Sequence record: NC_048202.1
Strand: one strand, 5' to 3'
DNA: 50,865 nt
Origin: Escherichia phage vB_EcoS_swan01
Both the position numbers and the translations under genes were made by a program. The notes beneath the pieces were generated by a model. It was not told the DNA's origin. It saw nothing but the letters and a program-made list of their open reading frames with translations, and searched no databases. Of the stretch, positions 3,194 through 26,189 are shown piece by piece; the first letter of the stretch is position 1; every line of letters begins with the position of its first letter.

Positions 3194-3868
3194 ATGGCTA
3201 CAGTCACTGTTATACCTAGTGATATAACGAAGCTGAAAAGTGATGTTTCGACACTAAAACAGGATGTCGCAGGAAAAGCATCAACTACTGATGTTGACAA
3301 TAAGTTGAAGCTGTATCTAAAACAAACTGATCTATCATCCGAGTTGGGTAGCGGAAGGTATAGTGGGAGTTTTTACCCCCTAACTGGTAACGATGCATTT
3401 TATTTATTTAATCTTAACACAACCGCTCAATCAGCAAACTTATGGCTTGATCCAAATGCTGGAGTTTCGCAAGTTTTACGCTCCACTTCCTCTTCTCGTT
3501 ATAAGCGCAGCGTAGAATCGGTTATTGATGAATATGCGGATCTGATGCTTGAAATTCGTCCTGTTTGGTATCGGTCAACTTGTGAAAGCGACCGTAAAGA
3601 TTGGGGATGGTACGGGCTAATCGCGGAAGAGGTTGGAGAAATTGCGCCGGAGTACGTTCACTGGCGACCGCTGCAAGAAGGAGAAGATCCTGCCATTGCT
3701 TCAAGTAATGGCATGGTGGCGGAAGGCGTTATGTATGACCGCCTCACTGTTCCACTGATTCACCACGTTAAGAAACTGAAAGCGGAAAACGATGAGATGA
3801 GAAAAGAAATTGACGAGCTAAAAGCGGTTGTAGAGGCACTGGTAAACAAACCAACCACGTTAGACTAA
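3194..3868 (+). CDS. tail fiber-like protein with C-terminal intramolecular chaperone (peptidase S74-like) domain
   Basis: SSSRYKRSVESV...WGWYGLIAEEV motif resembles the autoproteolytic chaperone domain of endosialidase/L-shaped tail fibers, plus a C-terminal coiled coil; RBS AGGAG. Confidence 0.55.
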   Translation: MATVTVIPSDITKLKSDVSTLKQDVAGKASTTDVDNKLKLYLKQTDLSSELGSGRYSGSFYPLTGNDAFYLFNLNTTAQSANLWLDPNAGVSQVLRSTSSSRYKRSVESVIDEYADLMLEIRPVWYRSTCESDRKDWGWYGLIAEEVGEIAPEYVHWRPLQEGEDPAIASSNGMVAEGVMYDRLTVPLIHHVKKLKAENDEMRKEIDELKAVVEALVNKPTTLD

Positions 3869-3896
3869 AAAAGCCCCGCATATGCGGGGCTTTTTG
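3866..3896. terminator. bidirectional rho-independent terminator between convergent genes
   Basis: gccccgca-tat-tgcggggc hairpin flanked by A-run and T-run. Confidence 0.7.
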
Positions 3897-17692: not shown

Positions 17693-17705
17693 GATTTTAC
17701 AGGAA

Positions 17706-17735
17706 TGAAAAAAGGGGCGCAACGCCCCTTGTTTT
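17706..17735. terminator. bidirectional rho-independent terminator after the major tail gene
   Basis: ggggcg-caa-cgcccc stem flanked by A6 and T-rich runs. Confidence 0.7.
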
Positions 17736-18396
17736 ACTTAACGTCGGAAGGTAAGAACGTGAATCGGCCTTTCAGAGATACAGAAAGGGAAACAGTTTCC
17801 ATTTCGTTCATAGTTGTTTGCGGAATGTCATTAAAAGACAATACGCCAGCCCAGCAACGCATCTCTTTAGCTTTCGGCACGTACATACGCAAAGCGGTTA
17901 CGTCGCCGGATTCCTCAGCCTCGCGCAAGATCGGATAAATCGGATTATCATATTCATGCGCGAAAGTATAGGTAAGAGAAACGGCGCTCTTGTAGGTCGG
18001 CAACTGCTGTTCCTGGTCATCAGCCAAACACTGATAAGTGTAATACTGTTGCTCGCCGCCGTCCTGAGCAAGATCCTGTACGCAAGGAACCTCTACCCAA
18101 GATTTCACCTCTCGGAAAGTTGCTGTATTAGAACCAGCCGGAAATACGTTTTGATCGGTTGTGTCTACACCTTCAAGAGTTACGCTTGCGTTATCAGATA
18201 CTTCTTTTACCCGCAACACACGACTAACCAGTTTACCCCAGGAAGACGTTTCAATCAGAACATAAGCACCTTTTTTGATCTGCTGTGAATTACTAACAGT
18301 AAAAACCGGATCTTTAGCGTTTGAAATATCAGTAGCGCTAATTGGCTCACCCATATTAACGCCGATGAAAATTTGAGAACCATTAGGCAAGTGCAT
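17734..18396 (-). CDS. major tail protein
   Basis: 220 aa; position upstream of G/G-T; followed by a strong terminator. Confidence 0.65.
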   Translation of the reverse strand: MHLPNGSQIFIGVNMGEPISATDISNAKDPVFTVSNSQQIKKGAYVLIETSSWGKLVSRVLRVKEVSDNASVTLEGVDTTDQNVFPAGSNTATFREVKSWVEVPCVQDLAQDGGEQQYYTYQCLADDQEQQLPTYKSAVSLTYTFAHEYDNPIYPILREAEESGDVTALRMYVPKAKEMRCWAGVLSFNDIPQTTMNEMETVSLSVSLKGRFTFLPSDVK

Positions 18397-18398
18397 GA

Positions 18399-18800
18399 TT
18401 ATTCCTCCTTTGTGTCAAGCCTAACACTGAAACGGATCGGTAAGAACCAACCTGTTTCACTTTTTAGTAATGTGTGGACCTTTGCCCCATCGCTAATATA
18501 GCCAGTTTCAAACATTCTACCATCATAGAAAAATCTCGCAATCTCTTTAGCCAGCAAACGCGCTTTATCAGTGCCGCCGCCAGGAGGCATAACAATTCCA
18601 ACCTGAACCAATCCGATATAAGAAACGCATTTTCTATCAAGAGATATGCGATCTGTGTCGGCTTCCATGTAGTCAAATTTTAACCACATCGAACCATCAC
18701 CAGGCGGAACAAAATCAACGTTTTCATAGGCGATCTTGAATCGTGATTCATATTCCGCCGCCAGCGCCTTTCTTGCCGCTAACATTAAATCATAGTGCAT
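18399..18800 (-). CDS. tail terminator protein (lambda U-like)
   Basis: 133 aa, immediately upstream of the major tail gene. Confidence 0.45.
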   Translation of the reverse strand: MHYDLMLAARKALAAEYESRFKIAYENVDFVPPGDGSMWLKFDYMEADTDRISLDRKCVSYIGLVQVGIVMPPGGGTDKARLLAKEIARFFYDGRMFETGYISDGAKVHTLLKSETGWFLPIRFSVRLDTKEE

Positions 18801-19233
18801 TTTTTGCCCTCGAATCCTTTATTGCCTTAGTCATATAGGATCGCAGCTTTACCGCCACGATTCCCAGCACGCCGGACGGCGCTTGTTTTGAATGCCCGTA
18901 TTCAAGCGCATTGGCGTAAATAAGCATGTTTGAAAAATAGATTGACCGCACCGCGCCACCGCCCCGCATGATTGCATATATTGCTCGCTTGCCTTCTGCA
19001 ATGGTTTTACTACCATCGCGATCGTATTGATTGAGAGCATATAGCGGCGGCTTGTTTGCTGTTACCTGCCAGTTAGCTTTATATCGGCCCGTATCAACTG
19101 GCGAACGCTTTACAAGATCCTCGTGGACGTTTGTCGCGAACATTTCAACGCAATCAACAAGGCCGCTGCTTACTGAATCAATCCACCTGCTTATATCACC
19201 GTGAAATTCCCTGATCTTATAATTATCCGCCAT
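18790..19233 (-). CDS. tail completion / neck protein (HK97 gp10-like)
   Basis: about 147 aa; position in the head-tail joining module. Confidence 0.45.
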   Translation of the reverse strand: MADNYKIREFHGDISRWIDSVSSGLVDCVEMFATNVHEDLVKRSPVDTGRYKANWQVTANKPPLYALNQYDRDGSKTIAEGKRAIYAIMRGGGAVRSIYFSNMLIYANALEYGHSKQAPSGVLGIVAVKLRSYMTKAIKDSRAKNAL

Positions 19234-19606
19234 GCACTGCAATCCTCCTTAATATCGGACGATAAGCTGCCGTGATGTTAGTCTGTCTGACTGGTCTTGC
19301 TTCAACGACAACATAACGATCGCCATCAATTTCAATCTGATAACCATTTTTGATCTCAGTTTCATTGGTGAATACCCCCAACTTGTCGGTTACTCGGATC
19401 GTTTCACCGTCAACCTCTCTAGTCCTCGGAGATCTAACAAGCCCCTTTATCATCACTGAAATCTCAGGCTTGGTAACTTCCTCTCCGCCGATAATATCAA
19501 CCCCTCCCTGCTGCGTGATGCACTTAAACATACCGTTAGCGTCGCTGAAAAAGTTAATCCCAGCCGTAGCCATTCTTGCAATCTCATTGTAGTTCATCGG
19601 CAACAT
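19223..19606 (-). CDS. head-tail joining protein
   Basis: 127 aa, position only. Confidence 0.4.
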
Positions 19607-20013
19607 CTCCGGCGCAATCCAGTTACAAGTCCAAAGCCGCCACCGTGCTTACGGTTTAACACTTCGTACATTTTGCCCCACGGCGTTTGTCGGATCTGCT
19701 TTCCGCTTGTATCGGAAGAAATTCGATCAAACGTCTGACTAAACTCACCAGTCAGAGTGAACGATGCAACGCGGCGGGAATAGCTTTCTACGCTTTCACC
19801 TTCCTGTTTCATTGCCCCGTCTAAGGTCATAAGGTGAAGAGTGTAAAGCGCAACCGCTTTCTGGTATGAGTTTTTAAACCGTTTTTTGCAAACAAATTCT
19901 TTAGCAAGCTCAATCCATGCCACAATTAAATCGGGATCAACCTGCTGCATTGGTGGGGCCAACTTTACGATTTGCTGAACGATTTCAGCGTCTGTGTAAA
20001 ATTCATCTACCAT
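19594..20013 (-). CDS. head-tail connector/adaptor protein
   Basis: about 139 aa starting at MVDEFYTD with GGAG RBS; position only. Confidence 0.4.
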
Positions 20014-20059
20014 TTTGTTTTCTCCAGATATGACAAGGGGCGCATAAGCGCCCCAATTA

Positions 20060-20326
20060 TTAATATTCTCCGCCATCCTCTAGCTCTTTGCGGCTCTTGC
20101 CCTCTGTAGGATCTTTTTTGCGCTTCTTCTCCGCTTTCTCCTTGATTTGCTCGTTAATTTCGGAATTGTCTTTAACTTCCACATCGCAGCGAGCGATCAG
20201 GTATTCAATTGCGGAATCATTAATACGATCAGATTCAATTTCAATCTCATCACCAGGGTGATAACGCTTACCGTCCATAATAATCATGCAAACGCCAGTT
20301 ACTTTAAGTTTTAAAGTTTTGCTCAT
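20060..20326 (-). CDS. hypothetical protein
   Basis: 88 aa, Lys/Glu-rich C-terminus. Confidence 0.45.
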
Positions 20327-20341
20327 TTTGTGTACTCCGTA

Positions 20342-20374
20342 AATAAAAAAAAAGGGGAACCCTTAAGGCTCCCC
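20342..20374 (-). terminator. strong rho-independent terminator after the capsid gene
   Basis: ggggagcc-ttaa-gggttcccc hairpin followed by T9+ on the minus strand. Confidence 0.75.
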
Positions 20375-20385
20375 ATGTTATCTAA

Positions 20386-21357
20386 TTAAACTGACTTTTT
20401 CAAGCCAGTAATAAGCACCATCGTAAACGGACGGTAAATCGTAAGGCCAGTACACTTGGAAGTGCAAGGAACCTTGAAATGAAGGTCTTTTGGCTGCGCC
20501 GGAAGCATGTTAAACGCTTCTGGAATCTCAATGCTCATGTTCATTGGATCTTTTTCGTAAACCAAGCAACCTTTCGTACCTTTGCCGTCAATATCCTCAA
20601 GCTCTGCGATAGAGTCGATAGTGATTCCGCCGTTTTGCTTCTGGAAGTATTCAAGATAACTTTCAGTGGTATTTTCCATTCGAACCGTCAAGACTTTACG
20701 CATGGACGGCGGGATCAGGATGTTAGTCGCGCGGTGCTGACCTTTTGTTACTTCCTCGATAGTCTCGATTGCAGCCTCCAGTTCATCGCTTGCCACATCA
20801 GGGAACTTGGTGTTTCCATCCTTGCTCATCCATCCTTTAGAAACAATTTTCGTAAGGTTAGGGTGATCGAAAACGGAAACGATCTTATGAGGCTTGGAAC
20901 CTTTGAACACCAGGAAGTTAATCAACTGATCATGCGCATTTTGCGCAGCGTTAGCCTTGCGAGTTGACAGGCTCTTGCCAGTTCGCTGACCTGCTTTAAT
21001 CTCATCAATGGAGATCAGAAAAGCGTTACCCAGGCGGAACACCTTGCCAAATTCAGAAGTCATCAGCGCGTCCACGGTCGGCAGATCGTCGGTGTAGTCG
21101 GCGATAATTTTCGCGTAGCCAACCTTATCAAAAGTCTGATACTCAAAAGTCTTATCAGTATCAGAAAGCTCGTTTGTTACAGGGAATACGCGAAGTGCGG
21201 AACCTGCCGGATACTCTTTCTCGTATGCGGTAGAGCGGATCTTGTGTAGCTCTTGAGCGGTCCAAATACCCATATCAGAAGCATCACCCTTAACGCCCTG
21301 AATCTGCAAATGATTTGCTACAATAGTAGCATCTAATTCATCGTATTTTTTAGCCAT
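20386..21357 (-). CDS. major capsid protein (putative)
   Basis: about 323 aa starting at MAKKYDELD with GGAGG RBS; bracketed by a hairpin upstream and a strong terminator downstream; position between decoration-like and neck genes. Confidence 0.6.
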   Translation of the reverse strand: MAKKYDELDATIVANHLQIQGVKGDASDMGIWTAQELHKIRSTAYEKEYPAGSALRVFPVTNELSDTDKTFEYQTFDKVGYAKIIADYTDDLPTVDALMTSEFGKVFRLGNAFLISIDEIKAGQRTGKSLSTRKANAAQNAHDQLINFLVFKGSKPHKIVSVFDHPNLTKIVSKGWMSKDGNTKFPDVASDELEAAIETIEEVTKGQHRATNILIPPSMRKVLTVRMENTTESYLEYFQKQNGGITIDSIAELEDIDGKGTKGCLVYEKDPMNMSIEIPEAFNMLPAQPKDLHFKVPCTSKCTGLTIYRPFTMVLITGLKKSV

Positions 21358-21400
21358 TTTGTTTCCTCCATAAAAGGCCGTTAAATGTAACGGCCTAGAT

Positions 21401-21445
21401 GATAGCACTTTTTGTTAAAGCGTCAAAGCGTTTTTATGTTATTCA
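21401..21445 (+). promoter_or_regulatory. motif copy inverted relative to the late genes (GATAGCACTTTTTGTTAAAG)
   Basis: conserved motif; a weak sigma70-like arrangement TTGTTA-N17-TATGTT points antisense into 21439..22452; in gene sense the motif precedes a hairpin and the capsid gene RBS. Confidence 0.4.
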
Positions 21446-22452
21446 GGATCGGTAATGGTTAGTCTTTGCTGACCTTTAACGCCAGAACCATCCGCAGCGG
21501 TCCAGATAACATCAACTTCGCCAGCGGCACTGGTAGTTACCAGTCCAGTGCTAGGATCTACGGATGCAAAATCACCATTTGACAACGACCAAGATCCGGA
21601 TTTATTGGTAGCATCTTCTGGAGCAACGACAACGCTCGCCTGAACGGTTTCACCAACAATTGCAGAATTTTTCTCAAGGCTTACGGTTGCACTAGCGACG
21701 CTAACAACAGCTTTTTCGAATTGATAAACAATCGCGGCCTTAGTCTTGCTTGCATCGTTAGCCGTCCAATTTACGTTTACACTACCGAATGCATCACCAC
21801 CAACAGGAGTTAGAATACCGGTATCGGCATCAATAGTCGCAATGTTTACAGCATCAACAGACCAAACACCAGTTTTATCGGTGGCGTTGCCAGGCTCTAC
21901 TGTGATACTGCATTTTACAGGAGCATTGTTTGGCTGCGGACTATCCTTGTCAGTGTTAATTGTTGCAGACTCTACCAGCACCACATGAGGCGGAGGGGGT
22001 GGAACGATTAGAGCATTTTGCTTCACCTGAACCTCAATAATGTGACCGTCTTCGTGCTTAACAAAGCCACCAGCAAAGGTCCAGCCAACATAATCATCTA
22101 CGCCAGTTACTACTCCTCCAACACCGATTTTTAGTTTTGAGAATGATTTCGGGGCTTCACTAAGAGAAGTAAGCGCCCACACCCGACCGTGAGAAACGAC
22201 GTTACACACCTCTCCGTCGAGAATTTTACCGCTCAGGTGCTCATATTGGGAACGAAAAGCGATGCCGTAAGGAGTTTCACCATCAGAAAGCGCCGTCACA
22301 ACCCTCATTCCATCCACTATTCCGACAACCCGAACCGCTGATCCAAACTCAATATCACCTTGAGCAACACAAGCGCCATCAATGTTATAGGTTGAAGTAT
22401 CAGAGAGATTGCCAGGACATGCATAGTGCATCATTAAATTTTCATAAGCCAT
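21439..22452 (-). CDS. structural protein with Ig-like C-terminal domains (capsid decoration candidate)
   Basis: N-terminal ~150 aa paralogous to 22512..22991; C-terminal half has tandem Ig-like (Big_2-type) repeats. Confidence 0.5.
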   Translation of the reverse strand: MAYENLMMHYACPGNLSDTSTYNIDGACVAQGDIEFGSAVRVVGIVDGMRVVTALSDGETPYGIAFRSQYEHLSGKILDGEVCNVVSHGRVWALTSLSEAPKSFSKLKIGVGGVVTGVDDYVGWTFAGGFVKHEDGHIIEVQVKQNALIVPPPPPHVVLVESATINTDKDSPQPNNAPVKCSITVEPGNATDKTGVWSVDAVNIATIDADTGILTPVGGDAFGSVNVNWTANDASKTKAAIVYQFEKAVVSVASATVSLEKNSAIVGETVQASVVVAPEDATNKSGSWSLSNGDFASVDPSTGLVTTSAAGEVDVIWTAADGSGVKGQQRLTITDPE

Positions 22453-22464
22453 AATAATTTCTCC

Positions 22465-22496
22465 ATAAAAAAAGGACCATCCTTTTGGATGGTCCC
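22465..22496 (-). terminator. rho-independent terminator
   Basis: ggaccatcc-tttt-ggatggtcc hairpin followed by T-run on the minus strand. Confidence 0.65.
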
Positions 22497-22511
22497 AATA
22501 TTAAACTCTAA

Positions 22512-22991
22512 TTACAGTTGCTGCAACTGAACTTCTACAAGATTAATATCTTTATATTTGACAAATCCGCCAGCGTAGGTCCAGTTAGTAGTGATTGTGC
22601 CGTCTGATTTTTCATGACCATCAACATCAAGTTTAACGGCAGTGCCGAAGACTGGTGCTGTGCTGGACTTTGAACGAATCCAAACTCTGCCAGATGTCAT
22701 TACGTTGATTGCGCTTCCTTCTTCATAAACCATCTGTCCTTGAGAGTTAACAGTTTGCCAGTGAGAACGAATTGCCACACCGTAAGGATATTTTTCTGTT
22801 TCCATGCTCTTAATAAGTTTATGACCTTCAACCGCTTGCACTGCGACAACCTGCACGGCAGTACCAACAAGAATTTCCCCACCTTCACTAACGACGCAAG
22901 CGCCGTCAATGTTGTATTTAGAAGTGTCGGCAACCATGCCAGGTAGTGCGATCGCCATAGTGTCAAAATAACTTGCTCCAATTTTAGCCAT
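22512..22991 (-). CDS. structural protein, paralog of the N-terminal domain of 21439..22452
   Basis: shared motifs DTS(K/T)YNIDGACV, YG(V/I)A(I/F)RS, GRVW and AGGFVK. Confidence 0.5.
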   Translation of the reverse strand: MAKIGASYFDTMAIALPGMVADTSKYNIDGACVVSEGGEILVGTAVQVVAVQAVEGHKLIKSMETEKYPYGVAIRSHWQTVNSQGQMVYEEGSAINVMTSGRVWIRSKSSTAPVFGTAVKLDVDGHEKSDGTITTNWTYAGGFVKYKDINLVEVQLQQL

Positions 22992-23003
22992 TTTAATTAC
23001 TCC

Positions 23004-24119
23004 TTATTTCAGTTTCTCAAAACGAGCGTTAGGATTCAGCTTAGAACCTGCGTCATCCTGTTTTTCATTAGCGAAAGAGTCACCTTTAATGCTCTTACGC
23101 TGTGCCGCCATTTTATCAGAGTTTTTGGCGATGTCGAAAGCTGTTTCGATATAGGCATCAGTTTTATCGGAAACGTCATTGCCCATAACTTCTTTGATGT
23201 ATGCAACCTTGATTGCTTTCGCATCCAGGCCGTCGCACTTGATGCCTAACTCTTTAGCGTCTGCTACTAATTGAGCATGTTGCGCGGCATCTTCTTTGGC
23301 TTTCTTGACTGCGGCATCAATCTGATCCTGAATGCCATCTACTTTGGTTTGCAGTGCATCTCGCTCAGCTTCCAGGCCGTCCGCCTTTTCTTTCTGTGCT
23401 TTGGCATCAGCTTTCAGTGATTCAATGTGATCCGCAACTGCTTTTGGCACGTCAAACTCTACAGCGCCATCCAGTTTAATTTTTACAGTCATGATTTGAT
23501 CCTCTTTGTTGTTAATAACATCGTCACTATACGGAAAATCTTGCTGGCTATCAAGGTTTAATTTTGCAATGCCAGCTCGACCTCGGAAAACTAACGCGAT
23601 GTGGTTTACCTTGATTTCAGTCTGGATTGCATCAAACTTAACCCAATCAGGAGAATCAGGTTTCCAGTCTTCGCTAACATCCTCATCGAAAACGTACTCA
23701 CCAGTTTTATTATTGCCCCAACCTGGTTTATCAATATCAACCGATGTATAACCAACTGAAATCTCCGCCGTGTCTCGCTTCTTCGCGCTTTCGATTGCTC
23801 GTTTTGAGTAAATGCTTAACGGAACCTCTACGCCGATCCCGTTCGGCACACCAGCGCCAGCACAAGAACCAACTACAACCTTTTCGGCGTTTTCTGGCGT
23901 TACCGTGACGTGACCAACCGTGACCGGCTTCCCTGCAAAGGTGGCGAGCGAGTCGGCCTTGAATACTTCTGACGCAGGGCGAAATTCTCGGCGCTCACCG
24001 AAAGGAGTCTGATAGACTTGTAAACCAATTCGCGCCACGATAGGGCGATCAACTAAAAACCCGTTATCATCAAAGTGCGCCTTTACTTTGGCGCTATCAA
24101 ATCTTTGTTTTGCCTTCAT
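23004..24119 (-). CDS. scaffolding-like protein
   Basis: 371 aa with a long C-terminal coiled-coil (KADAKAQKEKADGLEAERDALQTKVDG); position between MuF-like and capsid-region genes. Confidence 0.45.
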   Translation of the reverse strand: MKAKQRFDSAKVKAHFDDNGFLVDRPIVARIGLQVYQTPFGERREFRPASEVFKADSLATFAGKPVTVGHVTVTPENAEKVVVGSCAGAGVPNGIGVEVPLSIYSKRAIESAKKRDTAEISVGYTSVDIDKPGWGNNKTGEYVFDEDVSEDWKPDSPDWVKFDAIQTEIKVNHIALVFRGRAGIAKLNLDSQQDFPYSDDVINNKEDQIMTVKIKLDGAVEFDVPKAVADHIESLKADAKAQKEKADGLEAERDALQTKVDGIQDQIDAAVKKAKEDAAQHAQLVADAKELGIKCDGLDAKAIKVAYIKEVMGNDVSDKTDAYIETAFDIAKNSDKMAAQRKSIKGDSFANEKQDDAGSKLNPNARFEKLK

Positions 24120-24129
24120 TTAATACCTC

Positions 24130-24885
24130 TTAACTGTTCCAATCTGGTATGGCCCAACAACGACAACCGAAAGGCTCACCAGGAAAATCATGTTCAGAAT
24201 CTAGCGCAATGCGCTTACCTTCCCATTGTACATGCTGCAATCGCTCTCTGTCATCAAGCATACCATGCCAAAAATAATGAGTTACTTTTGAATCATAAAG
24301 ACGCTGGCGCATGAGTCTACTATTCCAAGCGCCTATGATGTTTTCCGCCCTTGTCTTACCCCAAGAGCTATACACTGCGAACCTCTTACCAGCCAATTCA
24401 TTAACCTGGCTATCTCTCATTCCGCGAAAGTTTGCCAATCTAATATTGGTTGACCAGTCAGACACGATGTTTCCAAATAGCTTTTGAAGAGATGCGATCG
24501 TCATGTCATGCCATTGACCGTATAGCGTCCTATACCAACTCTCATTCGCATTGGCCCCAATAGCCATAAGGATGATAACGGCTGAATTTGACTTGCCTCC
24601 CGTTGATTTGGCTACGTTAATAAATTGCTTCGCGTTGAATTTATAAACAGCAAGACCGATAGCCGGAAGTGATGCGGCGATGCCAGCTATTAGCTTTAAC
24701 GCGAAGCTACTAATCTCATCCTCTGCGGCGTTGATTTCTTCGGTGTCCGCGTCAAATTTCATTTCCTTTGTTTTGCTGCGCATCAGCACAACAAGATCCC
24801 TTATCGCCTCCTGAATTGAGCGGCGCAATTGCCGCTCGCTTGCTTCAGGAAAGCGCCATTGTTTAACGACGCCTTTCACTATCAT
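24130..24885 (-). CDS. head morphogenesis protein (Mu F / SPP1 gp7-like)
   Basis: C-terminal W/H-rich motif ending PFGCRCW; immediately downstream of the portal gene. Confidence 0.65.
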   Translation of the reverse strand: MIVKGVVKQWRFPEASERQLRRSIQEAIRDLVVLMRSKTKEMKFDADTEEINAAEDEISSFALKLIAGIAASLPAIGLAVYKFNAKQFINVAKSTGGKSNSAVIILMAIGANANESWYRTLYGQWHDMTIASLQKLFGNIVSDWSTNIRLANFRGMRDSQVNELAGKRFAVYSSWGKTRAENIIGAWNSRLMRQRLYDSKVTHYFWHGMLDDRERLQHVQWEGKRIALDSEHDFPGEPFGCRCWAIPDWNS

Positions 24886-26174
24886 TGATTGCTACCCTCT
24901 GTTGTTCCTGGCTCCGGCTCTACGTCTTGCTCAGGTAATTTAATGTCATTGCCGTCTTTTAGTTTAACGTTAGGCGCAATGGCTCGCAATGTGTCGCGCG
25001 CCTCTTCTGCATCCATGAATTGACCGTCAATAGCCTTACTCAAAGAATCAATGTTCTTGTTCAAGATTTCGGCCTGGTCCTTTTCGCTTGGAACGCTTAA
25101 CGGCGCAAACTGAATGCTCCATTCTTCCTCTTGAATAAGGAACGGGATCAGAAATTCAAGGATTGGTTTGTATTCTTCCTTTCGCTTTCGGTCGATCAGC
25201 TTGTAGAAGGTTTCAAGCGCCGTGTTTTGGCTAGCGCTAACACCGCCAACGTTCTTGTTTTTGAGGATGATTTCATGGATGCCGGAAAGAGATACAATGC
25301 GATCCATCTTCTTTTCCAAGAACGAATCGACGGCAGAAATATCAGAATTTAAAACATCATATTCCTCATCTTCCGCATCAATGCCGATCGCACGGCCTAC
25401 GCCACCCTCATCATCAACTTGAGCAAGTCGCAAACGTGCGGCACTAACACCATCATCATCATCACAAAGATCAGCAAGACCTTTAACTTTCCATACCGCC
25501 TGTTGCTTACGTCGCAACAATTGAGTTGCTAAGTTTTCGCAGTAGTTATAATCACAAATAGCCTCAACAAGTCTCTTATTCAGGATCGACTCACCCCACC
25601 CATCATTTGATTGACGCCGCTGATTTGGTAGCCGCTCACCGTCGATAATACAGACTCGCGAATAGTGAACCTGGTATTCTGGCAAGTCGACACCAGGTGA
25701 AATGGTGTAAATTAATGGCTCACCATATCTTACCTTGCGTGGATTAGTTTCGCGCTTTTCTACCCTAACCTGAAAGCGATCGTAAACGCGAACATCTTCA
25801 AGGATTGCACCAGGCGCTACAGGTGACTTTAACGACCTGCCATCCTGGACGATTGCCACGATTGCAGCGCCACCAAAAAGACGCGACCAGCAAAGCGCAT
25901 CAATGATTTTATCGTTTAGTCGCTTCTCATCCCACAAAGATCTAAAACTTTCCTCATCTTCCACGCCATCAATATTAAATCCAGGCGTCACCATTTCTTC
26001 TGGAACAACGTCGATGATTCGTTTTGCTAGGCCGTCACGAATGTAAAAATCAGCGTGCGTGGTGTATTCGAACCCCTGCATAAAGAAAGGCAACTCTACA
26101 CGCCCATTGCCCTTACTACCCTTGAAAATCTCGTTGTATCCATCGGCCTTAACTAGCCTTGTTTTTTCGCTCAT
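24882..26174 (-). CDS. portal protein
   Basis: about 430 aa, acidic C-terminus, located directly after the large terminase gene. Confidence 0.65.
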   Translation of the reverse strand: MSEKTRLVKADGYNEIFKGSKGNGRVELPFFMQGFEYTTHADFYIRDGLAKRIIDVVPEEMVTPGFNIDGVEDEESFRSLWDEKRLNDKIIDALCWSRLFGGAAIVAIVQDGRSLKSPVAPGAILEDVRVYDRFQVRVEKRETNPRKVRYGEPLIYTISPGVDLPEYQVHYSRVCIIDGERLPNQRRQSNDGWGESILNKRLVEAICDYNYCENLATQLLRRKQQAVWKVKGLADLCDDDDGVSAARLRLAQVDDEGGVGRAIGIDAEDEEYDVLNSDISAVDSFLEKKMDRIVSLSGIHEIILKNKNVGGVSASQNTALETFYKLIDRKRKEEYKPILEFLIPFLIQEEEWSIQFAPLSVPSEKDQAEILNKNIDSLSKAIDGQFMDAEEARDTLRAIAPNVKLKDGNDIKLPEQDVEPEPGTTEGSNQ

Positions 26175-26189
26175 CGTCAAATCTCCATA

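Follow-up and report, generated by a model that had tools for sequence, protein, structure and literature searches.

Two adjacent genes on the minus strand of the analysed stretch of phage DNA (50,865 nucleotides, the window) encode proteins of 159 and 337 amino acids. They are separated by a spacer of 59 nt, and the order on that strand is protease, short cement gene, long cement gene and capsid gene. The genes of this part of the head module are as follows.

20386–21357, minus strand: major capsid protein gene, 972 nt, HK97 fold family (Pfam PF09950, Major_capside, 2.8e-53)
21439–22452, minus strand: long paralogue gene, an open reading frame of 337 aa
22512–22991, minus strand: short cement (decoration) protein gene, an open reading frame of 159 aa, orthologue of T1 gp49 (ST49) and, as ST49, located after the protease gene
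23004–24119, minus strand: head maturation protease/scaffold gene (DUF2213), the first gene of the conserved synteny
24130–24885, minus strand: Mu F-like head morphogenesis protein gene
24882–26180, minus strand: portal gene

The major capsid protein, which is the binding partner of the cement proteins, also matches the PHROG major head protein family (1e-99), and its 972-nt coding sequence is annotated in Escherichia phage tinuso (MN850634; Drexlerviridae, Tempevirinae, Warwickvirus), to which the region is 99.4% identical. About ten further phages share the layout and are 96–98% identical to the region. A tRNA scan of the whole window found none.

The two proteins are paralogues, with 39% identity over 147 aa by BLASTP (E 8e-29). 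The motif pair ADTSKYNIDGACV / SDTSTYNIDGACV is found in the two sequences, and both GRVW and AGGFVK occur in each. Both match the Pfam Phage_cement family (PF22758, gathering threshold 27 bits) over most of the model, the 159-aa protein with 100.2 bits at model positions 2–145 of 146 and the 337-aa protein with 59.7 bits at positions 9–145 of 146. Each also scores above the curated cut-off of the XM1_gp53 minor capsid model (PF23982). The long protein can be divided as follows.

22012–22452, minus strand: cement (capsid-binding) domain, approximately residues 1–147, with a Phage_cement match; orthologue of the T1 gp48 N-domain, a beta-tulip according to the T1 paper
21988–22002, minus strand: polyproline linker PPPPP in the translation, residues 151–155, joining the cement domain to the Ig-like domains
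21712–21984, minus strand: Ig-like domain 1 (Ig1, Big_2-like), approximately residues 157–247, from the alignment with T1 gp48 up to residue 247 and from AlphaFold2
21442–21711, minus strand: Ig-like domain 2 (Ig2, Big_2), residues 248–337, with the best Pfam Big_2 stretch at 252–324

Pfam Big_2 (PF02368, gathering threshold 22.8 bits) was found in two stretches of the long protein with 60.9 bits. The AlphaFold2 model has a mean pLDDT of 87 and consists of an N-terminal beta domain and two beta-sandwich domains at approximately residues 160–246 and 254–334, both with pLDDT above 90; pLDDT is low at residues 148–151, adjoining the PPPPP run, a linker that is kept in the T1-type long paralogues. 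In Foldseek comparisons the N-domain of the model superposes on chain 9kzj_H with a target-normalised TM-score of 0.89 (rmsd 3.2 A, 87% identity) and on 9kmh_ak with a TM-score of 0.88. The fold matches also include Big_2 domains, LigA, the Ig domain of pb6 and the N4 decoration protein. The preliminary description of this DNA had placed at this locus two tandem paralogous genes of these lengths, just upstream of a putative capsid gene, separated by a terminator and with tandem Ig-like repeats added to the longer product; all of this was borne out, and the structure prediction that it had proposed as a check agrees with it.

Relationship to the T1 cement proteins

The short protein aligns over residues 1–159 with residues 1–158 of the 158-aa 'cement protein II / decoration protein' in PDB entries 9kmg, 9kmh and 9kzj (E 4e-76). 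Residues 1–247 of the long protein align with 255-aa chains, 9kzj_H with E 3e-129 and 9kmh_ak with E 4e-124 (1–247 against 1–247). Foldseek names these entries as capsids, of phage T1 for 9kzj and of phage FCWL1 for 9kmg and 9kmh. The T1 genome has the order ST50 protease, ST49 (158 aa), an annotated rho-independent terminator, ST48 (255 aa) and ST47 major head protein, which matches the window. On these comparisons, the locus very probably encodes the short and long cement proteins of a T1-like T=7 capsid, orthologous to gp49 and gp48 of T1. The pair is thus already known and has been solved in T1, and the only difference in the present copy is a second Ig-like domain on the long protein.

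As described in the T1 cryo-EM report (PMC11945409), the T=7 capsid has 415 gp47 subunits and carries 80 gp49 homotrimers together with 60 heterotrimers of one gp48 and two gp49, the heterotrimers being two of the six trimers around each hexon. Each of gp48 and gp49 has a beta-tulip fold; the inner capsid surface is reached by the N-terminal arm of gp49, and gp48 is placed by that description on the outside only (PMC11945409). The C-terminal Ig part of gp48 is reported there as weak protruding density modelled with AlphaFold3, and it is suggested by the T1 authors that it may assist adsorption (PMC11945409). The preliminary description had read the pair as a duplicated decoration or accessory capsid protein, with surface-exposed Ig domains acquired by one of the copies, and had named cryo-EM of capsids as a further check. 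The Phage_cement and PDB matches and the T1 structure support this reading, both orthologues being on the T1 capsid surface with the gp48 Ig tail protruding (PMC11945409). The reading is refined in that the two copies would not be separate decorations; the T1 paralogues co-assemble as 1:2 heterotrimers at 60 sites. Presence of the proteins in virions, on which the preliminary description had made its reading depend, is on record for their orthologues: MS/MS of vB_Eco_swan01 virions identified SWAN_00026 and SWAN_00027 (PMC6563131 Table S5a), and these are listed as orthologues of MAR002J2_00037 and MAR002J2_00038 (PMC6563131), the pair that corresponds to the window genes with 96% identity. 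The label 'confirmed structural protein by MS' in LR027385 was rejected as a direct measurement, the label having been transferred by orthology from vB_Eco_swan01.

By orthology with T1, the short protein would form homotrimers at most threefold and quasi-threefold positions and would also supply two-thirds of the subunits at 60 further positions. The long protein would be the third subunit at those 60 positions, with its N-domain lying on the shell like the short protein and its Ig-like domains projecting outward on the polyproline linker. Because there are 60 heterotrimer sites, two per hexon, these sites are probably the ones next to the fivefold vertices, on geometric grounds taken from T1. 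The portal-vertex entry of FCWL1 (9kmh) contains five chains of the long protein, and this number together with the 60 heterotrimers of T1 fits the trimer sites by the twelve fivefold vertices of a T=7 shell.

The locus has its gene order, cement domain, polyproline linker and first Ig domain in common with T1 and FCWL1, whereas the long protein is 337 aa in the window and 255 aa in T1 and FCWL1, both of which are without the second Big_2 domain (248–337). The two Pfam families that recognize the pair by score, PF22758 (E217 gp24 / Pam3 gp6) and PF23982 (XM1 gp53), likewise consist of capsid-surface cement proteins, although their type members come from myophages or Vibrio phages. The gpD type of phage lambda resembles the T1 pair in being a trimeric beta-tulip clamp at the threefold and quasi-threefold positions of a T=7 HK97-fold capsid; however, lambda uses one protein where T1 has a mix of homotrimers and heterotrimers, and the N-arm of T1 gp49 extends to the inner surface. 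No sequence relationship between the window pair and lambda gpD was found. Ig-like domains are displayed on the virion by T4 Hoc, T5 pb10, the Ig-like decoration proteins of N4 and the T5 tail tube protein pb6. Hoc and pb10 have anchor domains of their own at hexamer centres, whereas the long protein of the window is anchored by a paralogue of the cement protein within a trimer. It therefore falls outside the Hoc/pb10 type, its anchor being a cement domain that in T1 occupies threefold trimer sites.

Gene layout and proposed dosage of the long protein

Three features in the spacers on either side of the long gene bear on its expression.

22466–22496, minus strand: intrinsic terminator between the paralogues (hairpin 22496–22473), GGGACCATCC-AAAA-GGATGGTCC followed by U7
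21399–21426, minus strand: sigma-70-type promoter with an extended -10, TTGACG-N16-TG-C-TATCAT, found by scan with 10 of 12 matches plus the TG
21377–21396, minus strand: hairpin GGCCGTTA-CATT-TAACGGCC between the promoter and the capsid ribosome-binding site, annotated as a terminator in vB_Eco_Sip

Scanning and folding gave the terminator between the paralogues a 10-bp stem, -18.1 kcal/mol and a z-score of -3.2; immediately after it comes GGAG, the ribosome-binding site of the long gene. A hairpin with a T-tract is present at the same position in about 18 of 20 representative two-gene loci, and a terminator is annotated there in T1 and in vB_Eco_Sip. Because the stem sequences differ between the loci, conserved function rather than descent alone would account for it. 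The promoter lies directly upstream of the major capsid gene, and its core does not vary among 13 aligned Drexlerviridae loci, some of them from distant phages with a single cement gene, in which the order is cement gene, terminator, promoter and capsid gene. A scan for a promoter-like site between the terminator and the long gene found none.

The position of the long gene, after the terminator and before the capsid promoter, suggests that it would be transcribed only by read-through of a strong terminator and that the long protein would be made at low dose. Such an arrangement, together with a Shine–Dalgarno sequence that is weaker than that of the short gene (GGAG versus AAGGAG), would help to produce a long to short ratio of about 1:6, and the layout suggests a simple way to set this dose. 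Read-through expression would fit the copy ratio of approximately 60:360 in T1. Polyproline runs usually require EF-P for efficient translation, and we note that the PPPPP run at 21988–22002 might further reduce how much long protein is made. The hairpin at 21377–21396 starts 3 nt past the -10 element and varies in its stem between loci; rather than a terminator, it could mark where the capsid mRNA begins.

Variation of the tail and apparent exchange of the exposed cassette

The interval between protease and capsid gene was classified in 79 IMG/VR loci anchored on the capsid protein. All relatives with a capsid identity of at least 77% have two cement paralogues, the second of which is either about 250–270 aa with one Ig domain or 143–173 aa without Ig, and Klebsiella-type phages, with capsid identities of 54–58%, have a single cement gene. 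From this distribution of two-gene and single-gene loci, the duplication appears to date from early in the history of the T1-like group, and the second copy to have a variable tail. The existence of second paralogues without Ig suggests that the geometric role is primary and that the Ig tail is an add-on.

The single cement proteins of some Klebsiella-type phages end in a collagen-like G-X-Y run of about 18 repeats (L054, 3205–3888; L065, 3215–3886), and in a third locus the same repeat is found just past a stop codon (L067, approximately 3769–3885). On a trimeric cement protein such a run could form a triple-helix fibre at each threefold site. Another second paralogue (L033) is 164 aa long, is 59% identical to the long N-domain of the window and stops early; the 150-nt spacer that follows it (L033, 3851–4000) reads like the remnant of an acidic Pro/Glu-rich linker, suggesting a truncated tail.

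Forms with two Ig domains are few. At least 80% of the long protein was covered in only 24 of 1336 matching phage records, and in a large protein database most forms have one Ig domain and about 255 aa, those with two (336–346 aa) being rare. The closest solved relatives of Ig2 are the C-terminal Ig domains of the T5/DT57C tail tube proteins (PDB 8hqz_p, 2.8e-10; 7qg9, 5e-7). Ig2 is 51% identical (65 bits) to the C-terminal tail-tube Ig of the T5-like Salmonella phage SP3, a pb6 homologue, for which Ig2 is in turn the best match within the compared set, and 40% identical (48 bits) to its own neighbour Ig1. DNA similarity between Ig2 and Ig1 was looked for and none was found. Two origins of Ig2 were considered and rejected. 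That it is a recent tandem copy of Ig1 is contradicted by the protein identity of 40%, the lack of DNA similarity and the higher score of the SP3 domain. That it was left over from an alternative Warwickvirus cassette by crossover is contradicted by its identity of only about 42% to Ig domains of the type found in phages tunzivis and L012, and by DNA identity to these phages resuming only at the stop codon. Compared with the Ig2 of the window, the second Ig domains in two further two-Ig lineages (P0032 and P0033) show just 33–43% identity, so that separate acquisitions are possible. Phage Ig-like domains are well known to be mobile, and the pattern of Ig2 fits this mobility.

Tunzivis and L012, whose flanks are 96–99% identical to those of the window, also mark out a larger unit of exchange. 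High DNA identity to them stops at 22894, near codon 33 of the short gene, and is regained at 21441–21443, the stop codon of the long gene; within the interval the proteins are approximately 52% (short) and 30–35% (long) identical. A cassette (21442–22893) thus appears to have been swapped among near-identical phages. The first 33 or so codons of the short gene remain linked to the capsid lineage and encode one of the protein's better conserved parts. This part includes the N-terminus, described in the T1 paper as an arm that contacts the capsid from inside (PMC11945409).

Pooled pairwise dN/dS values were obtained from seven tinuso-type genomes, a small sample with non-independent pairs:

protease: 0.03
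capsid protein: 0.06
short cement protein: 0.26
long cement domain: 0.37
Ig1: 0.47
Ig2: 0.17

As far as these seven genomes and their non-independent pairs indicate, the cement pair is less constrained than the core head genes. The values of 0.17–0.47 from the same pairs give no support to positive selection on the Ig domains. In the seven phages synonymous divergence (pS) is 0.02–0.04 from the short gene through Ig1 and 0.09–0.13 in Ig2 and in the flanking protease and capsid genes, a step that may reflect another mosaic boundary, located between Ig1 and Ig2.

Proposed role of the Ig-like domains and alternative readings

We propose that the Ig-like domains probably provide weak, multivalent adhesion to cell-surface or environmental glycans, as has also been put forward for T1 gp48, T5 pb10 and T4 Hoc; the additional Ig2 would lengthen the adhesive reach. 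A broader proposal, which we advance tentatively and would rate as somewhat less than an even chance, is that the locus is a tunable surface module. Its first part would be a cement paralogue next to the vertices, the copy number of which is set by terminator read-through, and its second a tail that is freely exchanged within the Drexlerviridae, with no, one or two Ig domains or, in some single-cement Klebsiella phages, a collagen-like run. The third would be recombination that swaps the whole exposed cassette (21442–22893) between genomes that are otherwise 96–99% identical, the first 33 or so codons of the short gene staying with the capsid lineage. If this were the case, the locus would represent a natural, rule-based display scaffold, and for phage engineering the long paralogue could offer 60 defined, flexible display sites per capsid.

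Another possibility is that the long paralogue is purely structural at the vertex-adjacent trimers and that its Ig domains are neutral, passive passengers without an adhesive function. The duplication would be useful even without Ig, because many relatives keep a second paralogue of 143–173 aa that lacks it; the number of Ig domains also varies between 0, 1 and 2 among close relatives, and dN/dS is below 1. However, many separate lineages have kept Ig domains, the core residues of which (P, A.D, G.W and W.A.D) are conserved, and the dN/dS of these domains (0.17–0.47) points to purifying selection, which argues against neutrality. We therefore regard passive Ig domains as unlikely, although they deserve consideration, and prefer the adhesive role. 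It is far less probable that the two genes encode independent, alternative decoration proteins that each form their own homotrimers. Each does contain a complete cement domain, and the two are only 39% identical, but the long protein of T1 is described in the cryo-EM account solely in heterotrimers with two short subunits (PMC11945409), and the window proteins are close orthologues of the T1 pair, with 87% identity between the long N-domain and gp48 and a full-length match of the short protein at E 4e-76. A T1-type mixed assembly is thus the better reading of the pair. There is next to no chance that the database labels 'putative zonula occludens toxin', 'HtjA', 'scaffolding protein' and 'capsid fiber protein' carried by GenBank records are right in making the short protein a zonula occludens toxin, HtjA-like or a scaffolding protein, as its only Pfam matches are Phage_cement and XM1_gp53, the solved structures are those of a capsid-surface cement protein and the labels appear to have been transferred.

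Records of tinuso and the similar phages give the two genes the names 'hypothetical protein', 'putative zonula occludens toxin' and, once, 'capsid decoration protein'. Since the pair is a T1-type cement system, names that reflect this can take the place of 'hypothetical protein', 'zonula occludens toxin' and 'HtjA'. Beyond this, the inferred dosage layout, cassette junction and tail variability would be modest additions to what is known from T1. We also note that several public annotations of the tinuso head–tail module (approximately 17700–23000) look like unsupported, transferred names, as does 'putative zonula occludens toxin' on the short cement gene; candidates for the same are 'ribonucleoside-triphosphate reductase', given to a 124-aa gene among the head–tail genes, and 'tail protein/depolymerase', given to the 220-aa gene.
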